Shown: in pieces, positions 1 through 41,141 of the stretch
Layout: each line of letters begins with the position of its first letter
Position numbering within the stretch: position 1 is the stretch's first letter
Assembly: GCF_965641715.1 (NCBI RefSeq)
Contig: NZ_OZ282453.1
Length of the DNA stretch: 64,000 nucleotides
Reading direction: 5' to 3' (one strand)
From: Escherichia coli
GTDB taxonomy: Bacteria > Pseudomonadota > Gammaproteobacteria > Enterobacterales > Enterobacteriaceae
Position numbers and translations under genes: made by a program
Notes under the pieces: model-generated
Seen by the model: the letters and a program-made list of their open reading frames with translations, nothing else
Told to the model about the DNA's origin: nothing
Database searches by the model: none

Positions 1-1022
1 GCATTATTCTCGGCGGCGATCATCTGGGGCCAAACTGCTGGCAGCAAGAAAATGCGGATGCGGCGATGGAAAAATCCGTCGAGCTGGTAAAGGCATATGT
101 TCGTGCTGGCTTCAGTAAAATTCATCTTGATGCGTCAATGTCCTGCGCGGGGGATCCCATACCGTTAGCACCAGAAACGGTTGCGGAACGAGCTGCTGTG
201 CTTTGCTTTGCTGCGGAAAGTGTGGCGACAGATTGCCAGCGTGAGCAACTGAGCTATGTCATTGGCACCGAAGTTCCGGTTCCGGGCGGTGAGGCCAGCG
301 CCATTCAGTCAGTACACATCACCCATGTTGAAGATGCCGCCAATACTTTACGTACGCATCAAAAGGCCTTTATTGCCCGTGGGCTGACAGAGGCGTTAAC
401 ACGTGTGATTGCCATCGTGGTGCAGCCGGGTGTGGAATTTGATCACAGCAATATTATCCATTATCAGCCGCAGGAAGCGCAGGCGCTGGCGCAATGGATA
501 GAAAACACCCGAATGGTTTATGAAGCACATTCTACCGATTACCAGACCCGGACGGCTTATTGGGAATTAGTCCGCGATCACTTTGCAATATTGAAAGTCG
601 GTCCCGCATTAACCTTTGCTTTACGCGAGGCGATATTTGCACTGGCACAAATTGAGCAGGAACTTATCGCCCCCGAAAATCGCAGCGGTTGCCTGGCGGT
701 AATTGAAGAAGTGATGCTCGACGAACCGCAATACTGGAAAAAATATTATCGCACGGGTTTTAACGATTCATTACTGGATATTCGTTACAGCCTGTCGGAT
801 CGTATTCGTTATTACTGGCCGCATAGTCGGATTAAAAATAGCGTTGAAACGATGATGGTGAATCTGGAAGGCGTGGACATCCCACTGGGCATGATTAGTC
901 AGTATCTTCCTAAACAATTTGAACGCATTCAGTCCGGGGAATTATCAGCAATACCGCATCAGCTGATTATGGATAAAATTTATGATGTTTTGCGCGCTTA
1001 TCGCTACGGCTGTGCGGAATAA
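1..1022 (+). CDS. gatZ: Tagatose-bisphosphate aldolase non-catalytic subunit GatZ, 5' end truncated by window edge (reading frame open from position 3)
   Basis: ORF translation matches remembered GatZ C-terminal region; followed by gatABCD in canonical order. Confidence 0.9.
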
Positions 1023-1031
1023 GGACGGTAT

Positions 1032-1484
1032 ATGACTAACCTGTTTGTTCGTAGCGGAATTTCTTTTGTCGATCGTAGCGAAGTTTTAACCCATATCGGT
1101 AATGAGATGCTCGCCAAAGGTGTGGTTCATGATACCTGGCCACAGGCATTAATTGCCAGAGAAGCAGAATTCCCTACCGGGATAATGCTTGAGCAGCACG
1201 CCATTGCAATACCGCATTGTGAGGCGATTCATGCTAAGTCGTCAGCCATTTATCTGTTAAGGCCAACAAATAAAGTTCATTTTCAGCAAGCGGATGATGA
1301 TAACGACGTGGCGGTATCGTTGGTTATTGCGTTGATTGTGGAAAATCCGCAGCAGCAATTGAAACTTTTACGCTGTTTATTTGGCAAGTTACAACAGCCC
1401 GATATCGTCGAGACACTAATCACTCTTCCTGAAACTCAGTTAAAGGAATACTTCACAAAGTATGTTTTAGATTCAGACGAATAA
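1032..1484 (+). CDS. gatA: Galactitol PTS enzyme IIA
   Basis: 150-aa ORF, size and position in gat operon. Confidence 0.9.
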   Translation: MTNLFVRSGISFVDRSEVLTHIGNEMLAKGVVHDTWPQALIAREAEFPTGIMLEQHAIAIPHCEAIHAKSSAIYLLRPTNKVHFQQADDDNDVAVSLVIALIVENPQQQLKLLRCLFGKLQQPDIVETLITLPETQLKEYFTKYVLDSDE

Positions 1485-1514
1485 ATCCCTCTGTAACAAT
1501 AAAAAGGACTATTT

Positions 1515-1799
1515 ATGAAACGCAAGATTATTGTCGCTTGCGGAGGCGCGGTTGCGACCTCTACGATGGCGGCGGAAGAAATTAAAGAGTTGTGTCAGAG
1601 TCATAATATTCCTGTTGAATTAATCCAGTGTCGGGTTAATGAAATAGAAACCTATATGGATGGCGTGCATTTGATATGCACCACTGCCAGGGTGGATCGT
1701 AGTTTTGGCGATATTCCGTTAGTTCACGGCATGCCTTTTGTTTCTGGTGTCGGTATCGAAGCATTACAAAATAAAATTCTGGCTATCTTACAGGGGTGA
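1515..1799 (+). CDS. gatB: Galactitol PTS enzyme IIB
   Basis: 94-aa ORF, conserved Cys near N-terminus, operon position. Confidence 0.9.
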
Positions 1800-1802
1800 C
1801 CT

Positions 1803-3158
1803 ATGTTTTCAGAAGTCATGCGTTATATTCTCGATCTCGGCCCTACGGTGATGTTGCCGATTGTCATCATTATTTTTTCTAAAATTTTAGGCATGAAGGC
1901 AGGCGATTGCTTTAAAGCGGGTCTGCATATCGGGATTGGCTTTGTTGGCATTGGCCTTGTGATTGGCTTAATGCTGGATTCCATTGGTCCGGCGGCGAAA
2001 GCGATGGCGGAAAATTTCGACCTGAATCTGCATGTGGTCGATGTCGGCTGGCCGGGCTCTTCACCAATGACCTGGGCGTCGCAAATTGCGCTGGTGGCGA
2101 TTCCGATTGCGATTCTGGTTAACGTGGCGATGTTACTGACCCGTATGACGCGGGTGGTAAATGTTGATATCTGGAATATCTGGCATATGACCTTCACCGG
2201 CGCGTTGCTGCATCTGGCAACCGGTTCATGGATGATAGGGATGGCAGGTGTGGTAATTCACGCGGCGTTTGTTTATAAGCTCGGCGACTGGTTTGCCCGC
2301 GATACCCGAAATTTCTTTGAGCTGGAAGGCATTGCAATCCCGCACGGTACGTCGGCGTATATGGGGCCAATTGCGGTGCTGGTCGATGCTATCATCGAGA
2401 AAATCCCAGGCGTTAACCGAATTAAATTTAGCGCCGACGATATTCAGCGCAAATTTGGTCCGTTTGGCGAGCCTGTCACCGTGGGTTTTGTGATGGGGCT
2501 GATTATCGGCATCCTCGCGGATTACGATGTCAAAGGTGTATTGCAGCTGGCGGTAAAAACGGCGGCAGTTATGCTGCTGATGCCACGGGTGATTAAACCC
2601 ATCATGGATGGTTTAACGCCCATCGCTAAGCAGGCCCGTAGTCGTTTACAGGCGAAGTTCGGCGGTCAGGAGTTCCTGATTGGCCTGGATCCCGCATTAC
2701 TGCTGGGGCATACGGCGGTGGTATCGGCAAGCCTGATTTTTATTCCACTCACCATTTTAATTGCTGTTTGTGTGCCGGGTAATCAGGTGCTGCCGTTTGG
2801 CGATCTTGCCACTATCGGCTTCTTTGTGGCGATGGCGGTCGCGGTGCATCGTGGAAATCTGTTCCGCACCTTAATCTCGGGTGTCATCATTATGAGCATC
2901 ACCCTGTGGATCGCGACGCAAACTATTGGTTTGCACACCCAACTGGCGGCTAATGCTGGGGCGTTAAAAGCCGGAGGTATGGTGGCTTCAATGGATCAGG
3001 GCGGTTCTCCCATTACCTGGTTACTGATTCAGGTTTTCTCCCCGCAAAATATTCCCGGTTTCATTATTATCGGCGCAATTTATCTTACCGGTATTTTCAT
3101 GACCTGGCGTAGAGCGCGTGGTTTTATTAAACAAGAGAAAGCCGTTCTCGCAGAATAA
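1803..3158 (+). CDS. gatC: Galactitol PTS enzyme IIC permease
   Basis: 451-aa highly hydrophobic ORF, operon position. Confidence 0.9.
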   Translation: MFSEVMRYILDLGPTVMLPIVIIIFSKILGMKAGDCFKAGLHIGIGFVGIGLVIGLMLDSIGPAAKAMAENFDLNLHVVDVGWPGSSPMTWASQIALVAIPIAILVNVAMLLTRMTRVVNVDIWNIWHMTFTGALLHLATGSWMIGMAGVVIHAAFVYKLGDWFARDTRNFFELEGIAIPHGTSAYMGPIAVLVDAIIEKIPGVNRIKFSADDIQRKFGPFGEPVTVGFVMGLIIGILADYDVKGVLQLAVKTAAVMLLMPRVIKPIMDGLTPIAKQARSRLQAKFGGQEFLIGLDPALLLGHTAVVSASLIFIPLTILIAVCVPGNQVLPFGDLATIGFFVAMAVAVHRGNLFRTLISGVIIMSITLWIATQTIGLHTQLAANAGALKAGGMVASMDQGGSPITWLLIQVFSPQNIPGFIIIGAIYLTGIFMTWRRARGFIKQEKAVLAE

Positions 3159-3205
3159 TTTTTACCTGAGGGGGAGGTTATCCCCCTTAACAATCAGGAG
3201 TTTTT

Positions 3206-4246
3206 ATGAAATCAGTGGTGAATGATACTGATGGTATCGTGCGCGTTGCAGAAAGCGTCATTCCTGAAATTAAACATCAGGATGAGGTGCGGGTAAAAAT
3301 TGCCAGCTCGGGCTTATGTGGTTCCGATTTACCCAGGATATTTAAAAATGGTGCACATTATTATCCAATAACGTTAGGCCATGAATTTAGCGGCTATATT
3401 GATGCGGTAGGATCCGGTGTTGATGATTTACACCCTGGCGATGCGGTTGCCTGTGTGCCGTTATTACCCTGTTTTACTTGTCCAGAGTGTCTGAAAGGGT
3501 TTTATTCCCAGTGCGCAAAATATGATTTTATTGGCTCACGGCGTGATGGTGGATTTGCCGAATATATTGTCGTTAAGCGAAACAATGTCTTTGCACTACC
3601 TGCGGATATGCCTATTGAGGATGGGGCTTTTATTGAACCGATTACCGTTGGCCTGCATGCTTTTCATTTAGCGCAAGGTTGTGAGAATAAAAACGTTATT
3701 ATTATTGGTGCCGGAACCATTGGCCTGCTGGCCATTCAGTGCGCTGTCGCGCTGGGAGCAAAGAGTGTGACGGCGATCGACATTAGCTCAGAAAAACTGG
3801 CACTGGCAAAATCTTTCGGTGCGATGCAAACATTTAACAGTAGCGAAATGAGCGCGCCGCAAATGCAGGGCGTTTTACGCGAGCTGCGCTTTAATCAGCT
3901 TATCCTCGAGACGGCTGGCGTACCGCAAACTGTGGAACTGGCGGTAGAGATTGCCGGTCCTCATGCCCAACTGGCGCTGGTGGGGACGTTGCATCAGGAT
4001 CTGCATTTAACATCGGCAACGTTTGGCAAAATATTGCGTAAAGAGCTGACGGTTATCGGCAGTTGGATGAACTACTCCAGCCCTTGGCCTGGGCAGGAGT
4101 GGGAAACGGCGAGCCGGTTGCTGACAGAACGTAAGTTAAGCCTGGAGCCATTAATCGCTCACCGTGGAAGCTTTGAATGCTTCGCCCAGGCGGTGCGTGA
4201 CATCGCTCGTAATGCTATGCCGGGCAAAGTGTTGCTCATTCCCTGA
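3206..4246 (+). CDS. gatD: Galactitol-1-phosphate 5-dehydrogenase (Zn-dependent MDR family)
   Basis: 346-aa ORF with zinc-ADH Cys/His pattern and GxGxxG Rossmann motif. Confidence 0.9.
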   Translation: MKSVVNDTDGIVRVAESVIPEIKHQDEVRVKIASSGLCGSDLPRIFKNGAHYYPITLGHEFSGYIDAVGSGVDDLHPGDAVACVPLLPCFTCPECLKGFYSQCAKYDFIGSRRDGGFAEYIVVKRNNVFALPADMPIEDGAFIEPITVGLHAFHLAQGCENKNVIIIGAGTIGLLAIQCAVALGAKSVTAIDISSEKLALAKSFGAMQTFNSSEMSAPQMQGVLRELRFNQLILETAGVPQTVELAVEIAGPHAQLALVGTLHQDLHLTSATFGKILRKELTVIGSWMNYSSPWPGQEWETASRLLTERKLSLEPLIAHRGSFECFAQAVRDIARNAMPGKVLLIP

Positions 4247-6995: not shown

Positions 6996-7017
6996 AAAAA
7001 ATAAGCCCGTGTAAGGG
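6996..7017. repeat. attL core: 22-bp direct repeat aaaaaataagcccgtgtaaggg shared with attR
   Basis: Exact repeat found at 6996..7017 and 38957..38978; matches the P2 att core as I recall it. Confidence 0.7.
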
Positions 7018-7101
7018 CGTTTATATACCCTTACAACAGGGGCTTTCAGCGGTGCAATGCGGGTTTGCGCGGCACGCAAGACCACTGAAAGCCATAATAA
7101 A

Positions 7102-8115
7102 CTACCCTACTGTGGACACTGTGTGGACACTCTGAGAGCCAACACCACCACGTAGAGGATTAAGCGTTATCGCGTCCTGTAGGTACTCAGGGGCGAAGTG
7201 CGCATATGTCATTGTCTGCTCAATTCTTGAATGCCCAAGTATTCTCTGAAGCGTGATAATGTTGCCTCCGTTTATCATAAAGTGCGTGGCGAAGCTGTGC
7301 CGCAATGCGTGCGTAGCCTGACCCGGTGGTAGGTCGGGTTTCAGCTCCTTCATTAGCCGTCTGAACGCGGGATAGTTAGCATCAGTGAACAGATAGCCAC
7401 GCTTACCCGTTGTGATCATTGTTGCCAGTTCCTCGGATATAGGAACGGTTCGCGGCTTGTTGGTTTTTGTCTTAACGAAAGTGACGCGATTTTGAATGAT
7501 ATTTTCCGCTTTCAGTTTTGCTGCCTCACTCCATCTCGCGCCGGTGCTAAGGCAAAGAATCGCAATTTTTTTATTATCACCGTCCACTTTTGACAGCAGA
7601 AGCGCGATCTCCTCTTGCGTCAGGTAGCCGGTTTCTGGCTTATCCTCTTTGAGTCTTTTAAGACCTCGGAAAGGATGCTCCCCGAAAAATAGCTCCGCAT
7701 CTATCAACGCGGTAAACATCCCGCTAAGACACGTTAAATCACGATTTATACTCGATGGCTTGATGCCTTGAGAACGCCGCACAGTGCTGTATTGGCTTAT
7801 CAATGACTTAGTAATCTGAAAGGCACAAGGGTCACTGGTTATCTTTGTGAACAACTCTAACTTGCCCAGGTAATCTCGGCCGTGAGTTTCATACTTGCCT
7901 TTCAGCTCCCACCAGATTTTTGTTAGCTCTGACAGATGCCGCTTATCTGTCGGTTTCGCCAACCATTTTTTGTTGTGATGGTTGTACTGGGTATGCTTCT
8001 CGAAAGCGATAGCTTCGCTTTTCTTGTCAAATTTCCTGCGGATGCGCTTTCCGTTGCGCCCTGCAGGTCTAATGTCCACTTCATAACGACCATCATCGAG
8101 CTTTTTAACAGACAT
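7102..8115 (-). CDS. int: P2-type tyrosine integrase (337 aa)
   Basis: Near-identical to remembered P2 Int; start set at MSVKKLDDGRYEV; catalytic R..HxxR..Y region present. Confidence 0.9.
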   Translation of the reverse strand: MSVKKLDDGRYEVDIRPAGRNGKRIRRKFDKKSEAIAFEKHTQYNHHNKKWLAKPTDKRHLSELTKIWWELKGKYETHGRDYLGKLELFTKITSDPCAFQITKSLISQYSTVRRSQGIKPSSINRDLTCLSGMFTALIDAELFFGEHPFRGLKRLKEDKPETGYLTQEEIALLLSKVDGDNKKIAILCLSTGARWSEAAKLKAENIIQNRVTFVKTKTNKPRTVPISEELATMITTGKRGYLFTDANYPAFRRLMKELKPDLPPGQATHALRHSFATHFMINGGNIITLQRILGHSRIEQTMTYAHFAPEYLQDAITLNPLRGGVGSQSVHTVSTVG

Positions 8116-8211
8116 AAAGCCTCCCGATGATGTTACTGCGTACTTCAATTTCCTGATTTAAATAACAAAAACTCACCGTGCATTTACTGCACAGATAAGC
8201 ACCGTAAATGG

Positions 8212-24056: not shown

Positions 24057-24486
24057 CGCCGTGCCGCAGTTAAAAAACAATCCCGAAATGATGCGCATCT
24101 TTGCCGATGAGGGAAATATCTATGCGCGTCTCGCGGCCTCGCTGTCTCATGAAAAGAATTACACCCTGAATGTGATCGTCTGCGATTTTGTGGGCGACCC
24201 TGACCTGATTTTCGTGCCGGTGGCGGCATGGCTGCGTGAGAACCAGCCGGATATCTGCACGCTGGATGAGGGGCGCAAAAAGGGCTATCGGTTCCAGATG
24301 GATTTAAACGACGGTGATAATGTGGATATCAGTATCAGCCTGCAGCTCACCGAGCGCACTCTCGTCAGGGATGAAAATGGTGCGCTGCACGTCAGCTATG
24401 CGCCTGAACCACCTTTACCCGAGCCGGTGACGCGGCCAACTGAGCTGTATATCAATGGCGAACTGGTGAGCAAATGGGATGAATGA
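24019..24486 (+). CDS. Tail completion protein R-like
   Basis: 155 aa as P2 R, position. Confidence 0.7.
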   Translation: MQKMKSLRQALTDAVPQLKNNPEMMRIFADEGNIYARLAASLSHEKNYTLNVIVCDFVGDPDLIFVPVAAWLRENQPDICTLDEGRKKGYRFQMDLNDGDNVDISISLQLTERTLVRDENGALHVSYAPEPPLPEPVTRPTELYINGELVSKWDE

Positions 24487-37339: not shown

Positions 37340-37561
37340 ATGTTTCATTGTCCGAAATGCCATCATGCCGCCCACGCCCGCACGAGTCGCTATTTTACTG
37401 ATACCACAAAAGAGCGGTATCACCAGTGCACAAACATTAACTGCAGCTGCACGTTTGTGACCACTGAAACAGTCGAGCGTTTTATCGTGTCGCCGGGGGA
37501 AGTAGTACCCGCGCCGCCGCATCCGACATCATCAGGTCAGCAACAAATTCACTGGATGTGA
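37340..37561 (+). CDS. ogr: Ogr zinc-finger late transcription activator
   Basis: MFHCPKCHHAAHARTSRYFTDTTKERYHQC matches remembered P2 Ogr; Cys4 zinc finger. Confidence 0.85.
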   Translation: MFHCPKCHHAAHARTSRYFTDTTKERYHQCTNINCSCTFVTTETVERFIVSPGEVVPAPPHPTSSGQQQIHWM

Positions 37562-37572
37562 CAAACGAGAAA

Positions 37573-37595
37573 GCCCCGCGAATGCGGGGCTTTTT
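37573..37595 (+). terminator. Rho-independent terminator after ogr (gccccgc-gaat-gcggggc + TTTTT)
   Basis: Perfect 7-bp GC stem followed by T5. Confidence 0.65.
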
Positions 37596-37866
37596 GCAAC
37601 TTTTAGATCAGTTATGTTAAGTACATTTCCGTCGGCAAAGTGCCAGGAGCGGGTTCTAGAGAGTGACTAACGTTAGTTATATGTGTAAAATTCCTTAAAA
37701 ATAAGAAGGATATATATCCATGACAGCAATTGCATATTGGATTAACTGAGAATCAATTGAGAAATTTTTGGGGGGCAAAAAATAAACTAGCTAATTAAAT
37801 TTTTATAAATAACGAATATAAGACTGCAAGCCATTTAACAAAAGTTTATAAATAAAGGAGTCAGTT

Positions 37867-38718
37867 TTGAACAATATCCCCATATCTACTCAATGGACTT
37901 TAGACGCTACGGGTGAAGTTGGACGCTCATCAGTAAATTCTGTTTATATGATTATATGTCCTGCGACAGGCTCGAAAGGATCTGGTTTTTTAATAGATAA
38001 TGGGTTAATAGTAACGAACGAGCATGTTATCACTGGATGCTCTACAAATCAGATTTTCGCAATTTCAGCTTATGGACAGAAGATTCCAATTTCTCAAAAA
38101 TGGATAGATTCTGATCGCGATTTAGCTGTGCTGAGACCTGCCATTACCCAGACTGGTGGGCTAAGTATTGTTAAGGATAATGATCTTAAAGTTGGTGAAT
38201 CAGTAACAACTTGGGGATACCCATTAGGATACAACGGTCCTGCACCGTTACTATCCGTTGGTTATCTAGCAGGATTTAACTCATACCAAACCGCCAAGGG
38301 ACAAAAAAAACATCTAGTGGTAAATGGGGCATTTAACTCAGGAAATTCTGGTGGAGCTCTTTTAAAAGCTTCAGATAATAAAGTAATAGGTATTGTAGTG
38401 AGTAAGCATGCTCCTATCAGTCAATACCATCAATCAGCTATTGAAGCTTTGTCTGAAAATATGAGTGGCGTCACCTATACCGCTACTAATGACGCTGGAG
38501 AAACTAAAAGTTTTGTAGAATCTCAAATTGTAGCAGAATTATTGATTCATATGAGAAGTCTAACTCAAGTTATGATTGGAGAAGCAATTGCAGCAGAGGA
38601 ATTACTTTCGATGCTTAGCGAAATTGACTTGAGTCCACCACAATCTATGTCAAGAAATGCCTTATGTCATTGCGGGAGTGGAAAACGCTTCAAAGAATGT
38701 CATGGAAAGATATCCTAG
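37867..38718 (+). CDS. AT-rich cargo: trypsin-like (S1/chymotrypsin fold) serine protease with C-terminal SEC-C zinc-binding motif
   Basis: TTG start with strong aaaggag RBS 7 nt upstream; catalytic-triad-like TNEHV / DLAVL / GNSGGAL; C-terminal CHCGSGKRFKECHG (38662..38703). Confidence 0.65.
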   Translation: MNNIPISTQWTLDATGEVGRSSVNSVYMIICPATGSKGSGFLIDNGLIVTNEHVITGCSTNQIFAISAYGQKIPISQKWIDSDRDLAVLRPAITQTGGLSIVKDNDLKVGESVTTWGYPLGYNGPAPLLSVGYLAGFNSYQTAKGQKKHLVVNGAFNSGNSGGALLKASDNKVIGIVVSKHAPISQYHQSAIEALSENMSGVTYTATNDAGETKSFVESQIVAELLIHMRSLTQVMIGEAIAAEELLSMLSEIDLSPPQSMSRNALCHCGSGKRFKECHGKIS

Positions 38719-38888
38719 TAAGTACTTATATCAGTCTGATAATGGCTCTTCAAATACAAAAGACTTCACTTACTCTGCCGTCATCTCTGCTCCTCGCTTA
38801 TTGCAGACGGTCAAAAGCTTACAAGCTGTTGACTAGATGTGTTCTTACATTGTCAGTTAAAACAAAAGCCCCGCAAATGCGGGGCTTT

Positions 38889-38911
38889 TTGTATCGATGT
38901 GGTCAATGTGT
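38889..38911 (+). terminator. Rho-independent terminator after protease cargo (gccccgc-aaat-gcggggc + TTTTT), near-duplicate of the ogr terminator
   Basis: Same stem sequence as 37573..37595. Confidence 0.65.
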
Positions 38912-38956
38912 GGACATTGATAGAAATAAATCCATTTATTTCAGTAAGTTACATGC

Positions 38957-38983
38957 AAAAAATAAGCCCGTGTAAGGGAGATT
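38957..38983. repeat. attR core aaaaaataagcccgtgtaagggagatt (matches the 27-bp P2 att core as recalled), overlapping cyaR 3' end
   Basis: Direct repeat with attL; identity to remembered P2 attP core. Confidence 0.75.
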
Positions 38984-39043
38984 ACACAGGCTAAGGAGGT
39001 GGTTCCTGGTACAGCTAGCATTTTATGGGTTATGTTTTTCAGC
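38957..39043 (-). ncRNA. cyaR: CyaR (RyeE) Hfq-dependent sRNA
   Basis: Reverse complement reads GCTGAAAAACATAACCCATAAAATGCTAGCTGTACCAGGAACCACCTCCTTAGCCTGTGTAATCTCCCTTACACGGGCTTATTTTTT, matching remembered CyaR. Confidence 0.75.
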
Positions 39044-39077
39044 GAAGCGGATGATAACCTTAATAAATGCAGCTGTA

Positions 39078-40591: not shown

Positions 40592-40888
40592 TTAGCTCCA
40601 GTGTAAATGTCTGGTGGCGTCCTGGTTTTGGTTAAGGATACGAATGACGATAATTTCCCCTGGTGATTGCAGGAAATAAATTACGTGGCGTTCAAAAGGA
40701 AGAACAAAAATACCTTCGCCTAATTCAGGTCTGGGCGTACCTATATTATTGTTACTCAGAATCTGGAGAACGTCTGAAAGATGTTCCACATATCTGTCGG
40801 CTTGTGGTTCGCCGAAATGGTGATAACTGTAATACCAGATGCCTTCTAAATCTTCATTGGCTTTTGGCATGAGTTTAATAATACGCAC
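40592..40888 (-). CDS. ParE/RelE-superfamily toxin (98 aa)
   Basis: ParE-like pattern (EDLEGIWYY..., GTPRPELGEGIFVLPFERHVIYF..IIVIRILNQNQD); immediately downstream of antitoxin. Confidence 0.7.
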   Translation of the reverse strand: MRIIKLMPKANEDLEGIWYYSYHHFGEPQADRYVEHLSDVLQILSNNNIGTPRPELGEGIFVLPFERHVIYFLQSPGEIIVIRILNQNQDATRHLHWS

Positions 40889-40889
40889 A

Positions 40890-41141
40890 TTATTTCCTTA
40901 TCCCTGCTTTCACCTTCCGTAAAAACGCGTCCTTTTCCCACGGCTGAGCTTCACCACTACTCAACCCTTCTGCAAGCATGTCACGTAACGCTTGCAGGCG
41001 AGACTCTGCTTGCTTTTCTCGAAGTAAGCGCAGTGACTCACGGATCACTTCGCTTTGGGTGCGATAGTCGCCGGATTCAATTAAGGACTCGATAAATTCA
41101 CGCAACTCATCGCCGAGATCAACCGTCATCGTTCTGGCCAT
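40890..41141 (-). CDS. ParD-like (RHH/CopG-type) antitoxin (83 aa)
   Basis: N-terminal ribbon-helix-helix-like MARTMTVDLGDELREFIESLIESGDYRTQSEVIRESLRLLRE; upstream of toxin with 1-nt gap. Confidence 0.7.
   Translation of the reverse strand: MARTMTVDLGDELREFIESLIESGDYRTQSEVIRESLRLLREKQAESRLQALRDMLAEGLSSGEAQPWEKDAFLRKVKAGIRK

Follow-up and report, generated by a model that had tools for sequence, protein, structure and literature searches.

Probable duplication of the ogr terminator around an accessory-gene slot at the right end of a P2-like prophage of Escherichia coli

Why should the same terminator-like hairpin stand twice at one end of a prophage, once behind the late activator gene ogr and once on the far side of an accessory gene? 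We studied this question in a 64,000-nt stretch of Escherichia coli DNA (contig NZ_OZ282453.1 of assembly GCF_965641715.1), hereafter the window, in which a P2-like prophage spans about positions 6996-38983; the region studied is its right end, where a gene for a trypsin-like serine protease, the cargo, lies between the two hairpins. A preliminary description of this sequence had proposed that the cargo was inserted just downstream of ogr, with the original terminator context being duplicated or reused. Our preferred reading, to which we give a probability of about 0.72, is that in a clade near Enterobacter phage ENT4 the single ogr terminator was duplicated around an accessory-gene slot, resulting in a layered bracket with swappable cargo, for which we infer an insulating role.

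The palindrome GCCCCGC-N4-GCGGGGC has exactly two matches in the whole window, and none in 100 dinucleotide-preserving shuffles. Hairpin 1 is located at 37573-37590, with a T5 tract extending to 37595, and hairpin 2 at 38868-38885, with T5 to 38890; the loops are GAAT and AAAT, respectively. The preliminary description thus had the number of hairpins, the stem, the N4 loops, the T5 tracts and the first set of coordinates right, but it put the second copy at 38889-38911, which is 21 nt too far to the right (the correct interval is 38868-38890), and the repeat is longer than it described. The hairpins are parts of a direct repeat of 27 nt, AAAGCCCCGC[G/A]AATGCGGGGCTTTTTG, found at 37570-37596 and 38865-38891 with 26 of 27 positions identical; the two copies start 1295 nt apart, and 1268 nt of scaffold and cargo lie between them. 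Copy 1 begins 8 nt past the ogr stop codon (37559-37561). Copy 2 does not directly follow the protease gene, as had been thought; it begins 146 nt past the protease stop codon (38716-38718) and directly abuts the P-arm binding region of the integrase Int. Because the stem is a perfect palindrome, the two copies are simultaneously direct and inverted repeats of each other.

Both hairpins combine a stable GC-rich stem-loop with an adjacent 3' U-tract, the sequence features of intrinsic terminators. On the plus strand, the predicted RNA folds have energies of -21.5 kcal/mol (z -4.75) for hairpin 1 and -20.8 kcal/mol (z -5.49) for hairpin 2, and for either of them 0 of 200 shuffles were equally stable; the minus-strand values are -19.1 and -20.4 kcal/mol, and all four z-scores fall between -4.1 and -5.6. 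The tract UUUUUG follows both stems on the plus strand. On the minus strand, the U-tract is good for hairpin 2 (UUUUGUUUU) and weak for hairpin 1 (UUUCUCGUUUG). No Rfam family was found for the hairpins, or for the inner motifs described below; there were only sub-threshold matches to terminator parts of unrelated RNA families. It should be noted that the loop of the hairpin proximal to the P-arm (window 38875-38878) reads AAAT in the window and in loci L083 and L046, and the complement ATTT in L013, L108 and E. coli A15; it looks as if this palindrome has been flipped between loci.

The relatives surveyed were the best 80 of 387 IMG/VR relatives, with Ogr 89-100% identical to that of the window, together with phage and E. 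coli loci; in 39 complete loci both the ogr stop codon and the P-arm are present. Eleven of these are cargo-free, with an ogr-to-P-arm gap of 28-43 nt: P2, ENT4, four E. coli prophages (UTAK-6, HYM1, S42 and OkiPb01676) and five IMG/VR contigs. All 11 have a single hairpin, with ogr on its left and the P-arm on its right, and the same is true of the K-12 ogrK remnant and of phage TP. Thus, in the alignment of the ogr-att junction with P2 and its relatives, no cargo-free locus has both hairpins, in agreement with the preliminary description. In the P2 record (GenBank AF063097), the feature at 24265-24288, 10 nt past ogr, is annotated as "rho-independent terminator for ogr transcript and F operon", and is followed by the Int P-arm starting 4 nt later, the IHF site and the core. 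The P2 terminator shares with the hairpins of the window its location (about 10 nt past the ogr stop and 4 nt before the P-arm), its homologous flanks and its design, i.e., an A-tract, a GC-rich stem of 7-10 bp, a 4-nt loop and a T-tract; it differs in being present in one copy with the stem GCCCCTC/GAGGGGC, whereas the window has two copies of the GCCCCGC variant.

The closest phage record is ENT4 (83% identity), and alignments of the D-ogr region of the window to about 100 P2-like phages end where hairpin 1 ends. When one repeat copy and the insert are removed from the window, the resulting 196 nt match real empty sites colinearly (85-88% identity) and without interruption at the junction. 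Comparison with these sites shows that the ancestral flanks are those to the left of hairpin 1 and to the right of hairpin 2; the 3' flank of hairpin 2, TATCGATGTGG, is the junction of the cargo-free relatives. The single hairpin of cargo-free phages and the colinearity of the reconstructed empty site together indicate that the two hairpins are copies of the ancestral ogr terminator.

The remaining 28 of the 39 complete loci are occupied, with gaps of 432-4946 nt and a GC content of 0.31-0.43 in most of them (up to 0.54). About 58 occupied loci fall into 37 cargo clusters, 19-20 of which are complete from ogr to the P-arm; 13 cargos are on the plus strand and 7 on the minus strand. According to PADLOC, the cargos include Septu PtuA/PtuB, PDC-S58/ApeA, a ThsB-like TIR protein/PDC-S66 and AbiTii; a DUF4238 protein, an NB-ARC-like NTPase, an EAL-domain protein and a sulfatase-like protein are also found, and none of the cargos examined has a recombinase or transposase domain. 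A GC-rich hairpin precedes the P-arm in essentially all occupied loci, and one stands 8-12 nt past the ogr stop in most. Between the same conserved features there are, therefore, 11 empty and 28 occupied gaps, as expected of phage morons, and many unrelated gene sets, enriched in defence genes, occupy one conserved position, as in the defence hotspots of P2-like phages; by these sequence comparisons, the ogr-attP slot is a genuine hotspot. This prophage lineage is rare, being present in 34 of 5,426 complete E. coli genomes, and the protease is found in all 34.

Several observations concern the slot and its surroundings. In E. coli A15 (L006, NZ_CP028759, 4664-7030), which is the closest relative at the cyaR site, ogr is followed straight away by another small cargo, with no hairpin at ogr; a single hairpin stands after this cargo, and then comes a group II intron (Rfam RF02001, RF01998 and RF00029) whose ltrA is a pseudogene. 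The intron starts with GTGCG immediately past the hairpin and its TTTTTGTAT T-tract. Class C group II introns home after intrinsic terminators, as was reportedly described by Robart, Seo and Zimmerly in 2007; the location of the A15 intron directly past a T-tract, in a relative only and not in the window itself, may give, by analogy, an indirect indication that the hairpin is recognised as a structure of the terminator type. Three IMG/VR loci (L030, L050 and L053) have two P-arm-like motifs 3' of ogr (+39/+1599 and +533/+1443), which suggests that the att region is duplicated or in tandem, or that a remnant lies next to it. In Huaxiibacter chinensis (L120, ~3720-3860), there is an intact left-type motif beside yegS, together with a degraded hairpin and the decayed 3' end of ogr; the same slot survives here as a remnant in another genus, at a K-12-like yegS-yegQ locus.

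Classical P2-type prophages have a different arrangement. In 1,857 of 2,092 genomes, nothing interrupts the segment from ogr through the P-arm; some P2-type prophages, at the fieF att site, have cargo past the ogr terminator. For example, S13 (L105) has a 213-aa low-GC cargo, and an unrelated second hairpin overlaps the stop codon of this cargo. In two other fieF-site prophages, an insertion sequence lies inside the ogr hairpin, IS150 in E. coli ESY001 (L106, ~3745) and IS4 in E. coli SMS-3-5 (L107, ~3745). Together with the A15 intron after the T-tract, these two insertions indicate that the interval from the terminator to the P-arm is permissive to insertions and draws them. The scaffold with the duplicated terminator belongs to the clade of the window.

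Inside the two hairpins, further sequence is shared among loci with unrelated cargos. About 60 nt past hairpin 1 (the left scaffold, consensus TTTTTGTATCTGTTAGATTTGTGCTGTTAATTACAT-GACCGTCTGCAAAGTGCCAGGAGCGGA-AGTTA in alignment A1) and about 80-85 nt before hairpin 2 (the right scaffold) are conserved, and beyond both scaffolds, toward the cargo, the sequences diverge completely. At the cargo-side ends of the scaffolds lies a ~27-nt motif, found only twice in the window, in inverted orientation (about 0.15 in shuffles), and without a match upstream of the ogr stop of the fetched loci (roughly 450 kb). The inverted similarity of the left and right scaffolds of the window has a score of 37 versus a shuffle mean of 18.7; it is significant in the window, L041 and L039, where 0 of 500 shuffles reach the observed score in each case. 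The motif was accepted only on its recurrence across loci together with the 0/500 shuffle result on the focused flanks. Long terminal inverted repeats, sought in the window alone, were rejected: flanks of 164 nt have a score of 22, compared with a shuffle mean of 17 and a maximum of 31, which is not significant.

Several other identities of these sequences were considered and rejected. A dispersed end of an insertion sequence or of a miniature inverted-repeat transposable element is not supported; the exact patterns of the motif match only ogr-adjacent IMG/VR contigs, and the left scaffold only the 34 E. coli genomes. A first strict left-type pattern scan of genome contigs gave no match, and neither did the literature searched for the motif sequence. 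The (T/G)TTAGAT element of the left scaffold is not an immunity-repressor operator, being absent from the C/cox region of the prophage and no more frequent than chance (15 observed vs. 13.6 expected); the P2 O1/O2 operators are GTTTAGAT. The TGT-N12-ACA Ogr late-promoter element, the LexA box, Xer/dif arms and the enterobacterial repetitive intergenic consensus were compared by eye only, and dropped.

The protease itself allows the bracket to be dated relative to its present cargo. The open reading frame (ORF) matches Pfam Trypsin_2 (1e-19) and SEC-C (3.6e-7), as well as two defence-associated entries of PADLOC, the RT-Protease_XI protease domain (7e-21) and PDC-M35A (6e-13). Among the 912 homologs found, one of Klebsiella michiganensis (90% amino acid identity) is located on a chromosomal island beside SRAP, umuDC and a TIR gene, one of Yersinia (82%) in an unrelated prophage near lysis genes, and one of Vibrio parahaemolyticus (72%) in an integron-like cassette array; the GCCCCGC hairpin is present in none of these three contexts. 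DNA homology between the window and the K. michiganensis copy is restricted to 37645-38757 (86.3% over 1116 nt), and these limits lie 49 and 108 nt inside the repeat copies. The mobile module, therefore, includes a 222-nt upstream region that travels with the protease gene, and the terminator comes from the slot, not from the module. The mean local similarity score of hairpins within a locus is 16.4, compared with 15.3 between loci; a fresh duplication at each cargo insertion was rejected because the within-locus similarity is not above the between-locus one. Moreover, hairpin 1 is identical to the single-hairpin allele of L028, and hairpin 2 to that of the cargo-free ENT4, L030 and L040; thus, the high similarity of the two copies of the window reflects their closeness to the family consensus.

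Taken together, the hairpins and scaffolds shared with unrelated cargos, the module limits, the hairpin scores and the other protease contexts indicate that the bracket predates the protease. Most likely, judging from these comparisons, the protease module was placed in a pre-existing bracket, with hairpin 2 being used as its terminator. The proposal of a cargo inserted downstream of ogr thus survives in part: The hairpins are copies of the single ogr terminator, the cargo lies between them and hairpin 2 appears to be reused, but the duplication was not made by the protease insertion. Two details of the module and its homologs should be added. A 19-nt inverted repeat, 37707-37725/38698-38716 (AGGATATATATCCATGACA/TGTCATGGAAAGATATCCT, 89% complementary), lies inside the module and could allow pairing within the mRNA between the 5' leader of the protease and the last codons of the ORF. 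In V. parahaemolyticus (L102-L104, 3200-4600), small same-strand ORFs are parted by long attC-like repeats (TAACAAAC...GTTATAC), and the protease homolog among them looks like a chromosomal integron cassette.

The layers of the bracket are, from the outside in, hairpins 1 and 2, the scaffolds, the inverted ~27-nt hairpin motifs and the swappable cargo at the centre. Under the reading that we prefer, the protease module, bringing its upstream region and no such terminator, would have replaced an earlier cargo inside the existing bracket. Hairpin 1 would stop the ogr and late F-operon transcripts ahead of the cargo, so that the cargo would be uncoupled from late control and transcribed from the promoter region it brought. 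Hairpin 2 would end the cargo transcript ahead of the Int/IHF sites of attR and the convergent small RNA gene CyaR; on the minus strand, it would stop read-in, coming from CyaR/yegQ in a lysogen or from the C-int operon when the phage is circular. It is plausible that the cargo is insulated as a separate transcription unit; that hairpins persist on both sides in either orientation of the cargo supports such a role. Because cargos in both orientations keep both hairpins, hairpin 2 is not simply the terminator of the cargo itself. For the original duplication, a Campbell-type crossover at the hairpin, palindrome repair and other routes are candidates.

Several points weigh against this reading. 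The survey was confined to the best 80 of the 387 IMG/VR relatives. A strong hairpin (<= -15 kcal/mol, a cut-off reached by 9% of background windows; -10.9 was dropped as too lax, because 32% pass) follows ogr in only 10 of the 20 complete cargo types; about six more have a recognisable weaker derivative there. Three occupied cargo types (A15/L006, L054 and L077) have no hairpin directly after ogr, so the double terminator is common but not obligatory. At the fieF site, the second hairpin of the P2-type prophages is unrelated in sequence and lacks a T-tract. Finally, the case for termination and insulation is one of sequence features, together with the annotation of the P2 orthologue as a terminator.

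A bolder interpretation, which we consider unlikely, is that the ogr-attP slot is a terminator-insulated docking site for an undescribed integrase-less cassette system, in which cassettes of one to three genes, many of them anti-phage, would be bounded by the related hairpins X and Y described below, stand in tandem arrays with X-spacer-Y palindromes as joints, both in chromosomes and on metagenomic contigs, and recombine with the phage slot inside these motifs, with the duplicated terminator serving as the outer insulation.

The inner motif is found at internal boundaries of the multi-cassette loci L039 and L108, and the perfect identity of the cargo shared by L031 and L108 begins in the middle of the motif, indicating an exchange breakpoint inside it. 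The metagenomic contig Ga0308160_10036921 (L181; 3.9 kb, 170-3740) is a three-cassette array with X-spacer-Y doublets between the cassettes, where X is GTCCGCT-TCTGGCACAGA-GCGGAC and Y is GTCCGCT-ATGAGCGAGA-AGCGGAC. X and Y have a common 7-bp stem and different loops, Y being roughly the reverse complement (rc) of X, and the doublets of L181 fold at -23 to -31 kcal/mol; the two motifs of the window correspond to the rc(X)-type and rc(Y)-type arms, their stem being slightly bulged. A cassette of L181 has 67% protein identity to the slot cargo L080, and another matches PDC-S35/TIR. L112 (10193-11681) and L133 (38-5592) have X/Y arrays or pairs with one- to three-gene cassettes in no recognisable P2 context; among the genes of the X/Y-bounded cassettes outside the P2 context (L181, L112 and L133) are a PDC-S35/TIR-like one and a DUF4238 gene that has a relative among the cargos of the ogr slot. 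In Symbiopectobacterium, genes past icd lie between motif pairs of a similar kind; in Phytobacter, one copy stands behind an SRAP gene, and a hairpin with the same stem lies 65 nt downstream of the Klebsiella protease copy.

Two known kinds of repeat resemble these junctions in part. Integron attC sites have R''/L''/L'/R' boxes (RYYYAAC ... GTTRRRY), and IntI and attI adjoin the array. Like integron arrays, L181, L108 and L112 consist of one- to three-gene cassettes with imperfectly palindromic hairpin junctions of ~65 bp, and gene families recur in arrays and elsewhere, as does the protease with its homolog in the integron-like array of V. parahaemolyticus. Unlike them, the X-spacer-Y junctions lack RYYYAAC/GTTRRRY core boxes, the cassettes are in both orientations, and exchange breakpoints fall in the middle of a half-site rather than at the R' box. 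No IntI gene or attI was found in the slot of the window or in the fetched arrays, although the array contigs are short and absence there is weak evidence. Membership in integron cassettes, or in clusters of attC sites lacking an integrase, is not supported. Repetitive extragenic palindromes (REPs) and their hairpin-forming doublets (REPINs) are present tens to hundreds of times in a genome and are accompanied by a RAYT gene. The X/Y doublets resemble these, and bacterial interspersed mosaic elements, in having two inverted hairpins with the same stem (GTCCGCT/AGCGGAC) and a short spacer in extragenic positions just past genes. They differ in that copies are few (0 elsewhere in the 64-kb window and single exact-core matches in three enterobacterial reference genomes), in that X/Y bound variable cassettes instead of being scattered over the genome, and in that no RAYT gene was seen in the regions viewed.

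An account that we regard as less probable still takes the duplication for a by-product of the hairpin-targeted insertion of an ancestral scaffold with cargo, selection for insulation being secondary or absent; possible routes are a single Campbell-type crossover of circular DNA having a similar hairpin, or break repair at the palindrome. The terminator region does draw insertions, as the IS150, IS4 and group II intron cases illustrate, and in cargo lineages that lack the X/Y scaffold (clusters 1 and 2, L066 and L090), hairpins of the GCCCCGC family flank the cargo with differing left junctions, which hints at recurrent events. However, no cargo has a recombinase or transposase, and the hairpins have been kept on both sides through cargo turnover and in either orientation, which suggests retention for function. 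This account concerns the origin of the bracket, not its present function, and is compatible with the duplicated terminator as an insulating bracket.

It is very improbable that the protease insertion itself duplicated the terminator, leaving a footprint like a target-site duplication. The pair of the window is the most similar pair seen (26/27), and removal of one copy with the insert restores an empty site, both in favour of this account; however, the two-hairpin bracket and the inner scaffolds also surround unrelated cargos, the module limits lie 49 and 108 nt inside the repeat copies, and each hairpin of the window is identical to a single-hairpin allele of cargo-free relatives. Target-site duplications of transposons are typically 2-14 bp long and abut terminal inverted repeats. 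Here, the repeat is 27 nt long, and the inverted motifs lie 30 and 52 nt inside its copies; to our knowledge, a duplication of 27 nt is far beyond known transposase footprints. No transposase or recombinase domain was found in the cargos, and the scaffold was found only at this slot, in IMG/VR and the E. coli genomes.

Finally, convergent origin of two independent terminators, with hairpin 2 belonging to the cargo gene, is scarcely credible and already contradicted by the comparative data: A GC-rich stem with a 4-nt loop is a common terminator design, and the sub-threshold Rfam matches at both sites are to terminator parts of unrelated RNA families, but the identity of 26/27 extends to the A-tract and the TTTTTG tail, the junction of hairpin 2 with the P-arm is exactly the one found at empty sites, the hairpin is missing beside the protease homologs of the three other contexts, and minus-strand cargos also have a hairpin on the P-arm side.

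The features of the prophage end are collected in Table 1. The GC content is 0.29-0.44 in the cargo island, which has one ORF, versus 0.55-0.63 in the late genes. The insertion point of the prophage is the terminator of the host small RNA gene cyaR (ryeE), and full-length CyaR is retained because the att core regenerates the CyaR terminator. The next gene beyond CyaR is yegQ. Between yegQ and yegP (window 40592-41141) lies a toxin-antitoxin pair of the ParD/ParE type, which is present in UTAK-6 and WP2-S18 and not in HB101/HYM1; it is, therefore, a strain-variable insertion near the att site.

Table 1. Features of the prophage ends and of the adjoining host site, in window coordinates.
Feature	Position	Strand	Basis or remark
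attL core AAAAAATAAGCCCGTGTAAGGGCGTTT	6996-7022	.	pattern scan; second copy of the 27-nt P2 att core, 23/27 identical
integrase-sized ORF	7102-8148	-	next to the attL core
gpD, late control/tail protein D, 387 aa	36096-37259	+	identical WP2-S18 locus annotated as phage late control D family protein
ogr, late transcription activator, 73 aa	37340-37561	+	Pfam Ogr_Delta, E = 1.7e-20; same CDS in NZ_AP021944
hairpin 1, left terminator copy	37570-37596	+	stem 37573-37579/37584-37590, loop GAAT, tail TTTTTG; matches P2 terminator position
left inner scaffold	37597-37653	+	alignment A1, 9 loci; ends in hairpin motif IR-L
IR-L, rc(X)-type, TTCCGTCGGCAAAGTGCCAGGAGCGGG	37627-37653	+	motif and profile scans
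mobile protease module	37645-38757	+	222-nt upstream region, ORF and 39 nt downstream; homology limits vs. Klebsiella copy
promoter-like site	37663-37691	+	9/12 sigma-70-like
cargo gene, 283-aa trypsin-like serine protease with C-terminal SEC-C motif	37867-38718	+	Pfam
right inner scaffold	38786-38864	-	MAFFT alignment of right flanks; starts with hairpin motif IR-R
IR-R, rc(Y)-type	38786-38812	-	motif and profile scans
hairpin 2, right terminator copy	38865-38891	.	stem 38868-38874/38879-38885, loop AAAT; U-tracts on both strands
Int P-arm binding region of attP/attR, TCGATGTGGTCAATGTGTGGACATTGAT	38894-38921	+	aligned to P2 "protein_bind Int, P arm"
IHF site of attP/attR, predicted	38925-38958	+	positional alignment to annotated P2 IHF site only
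attR core AAAAAATAAGCCCGTGTAAGGGAGATT	38957-38983	.	identical to P2 attP core; overlaps CyaR terminator stem
CyaR (RyeE) small RNA gene, convergent with cargo	38960-39045	-	Rfam RF00112, 100.7 bits, full length

We regard the slot as a variant of phage morons, P2 hotspots and intrinsic terminators, not as a new kind of system. Like the morons described by Juhala et al. 2000 and Cumby et al. 2012 (as cited in bioRxiv 10.1101/2024.10.15.618418), it has an accessory gene that is present or absent between conserved features, with low GC content, a promoter-like region of its own and a downstream terminator; it differs in that the terminators are those of the phage, in two copies, and that the slot is reusable for many morons. 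Variable-gene hotspots of P2-like phages have been described (Rousset et al. 2022, PMC9122126; iLund4u, 10.1101/2024.10.15.618418; 10.64898/2026.02.27.708500), the best-described being the gpA-portal (tin/old) and Z/fun positions. The slot shares with them the turnover of defence genes between conserved landmarks, here including Septu, TIR, Abi and PDC genes; ogr, a duplicated terminator and conserved inner motifs are not mentioned in these three sources.

Among the major carriers of anti-phage genes are P2-like prophages, and new defence systems have been found in good number at their known hotspots. The present analysis defines a further slot, from ogr to attP, at base-pair resolution, with terminator copies as putative fences and inner motifs as putative exchange points, and it provides a signature (ogr stop, hairpin, cargo, hairpin, P-arm) by which cargo genes can be harvested. 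It suggests how a phage may host foreign genes beside its att site while sparing late-gene control, the integration/excision sites and CyaR, and it raises the hypothesis that short hairpin motifs mediate the exchange of cassettes between chromosomes and phages.

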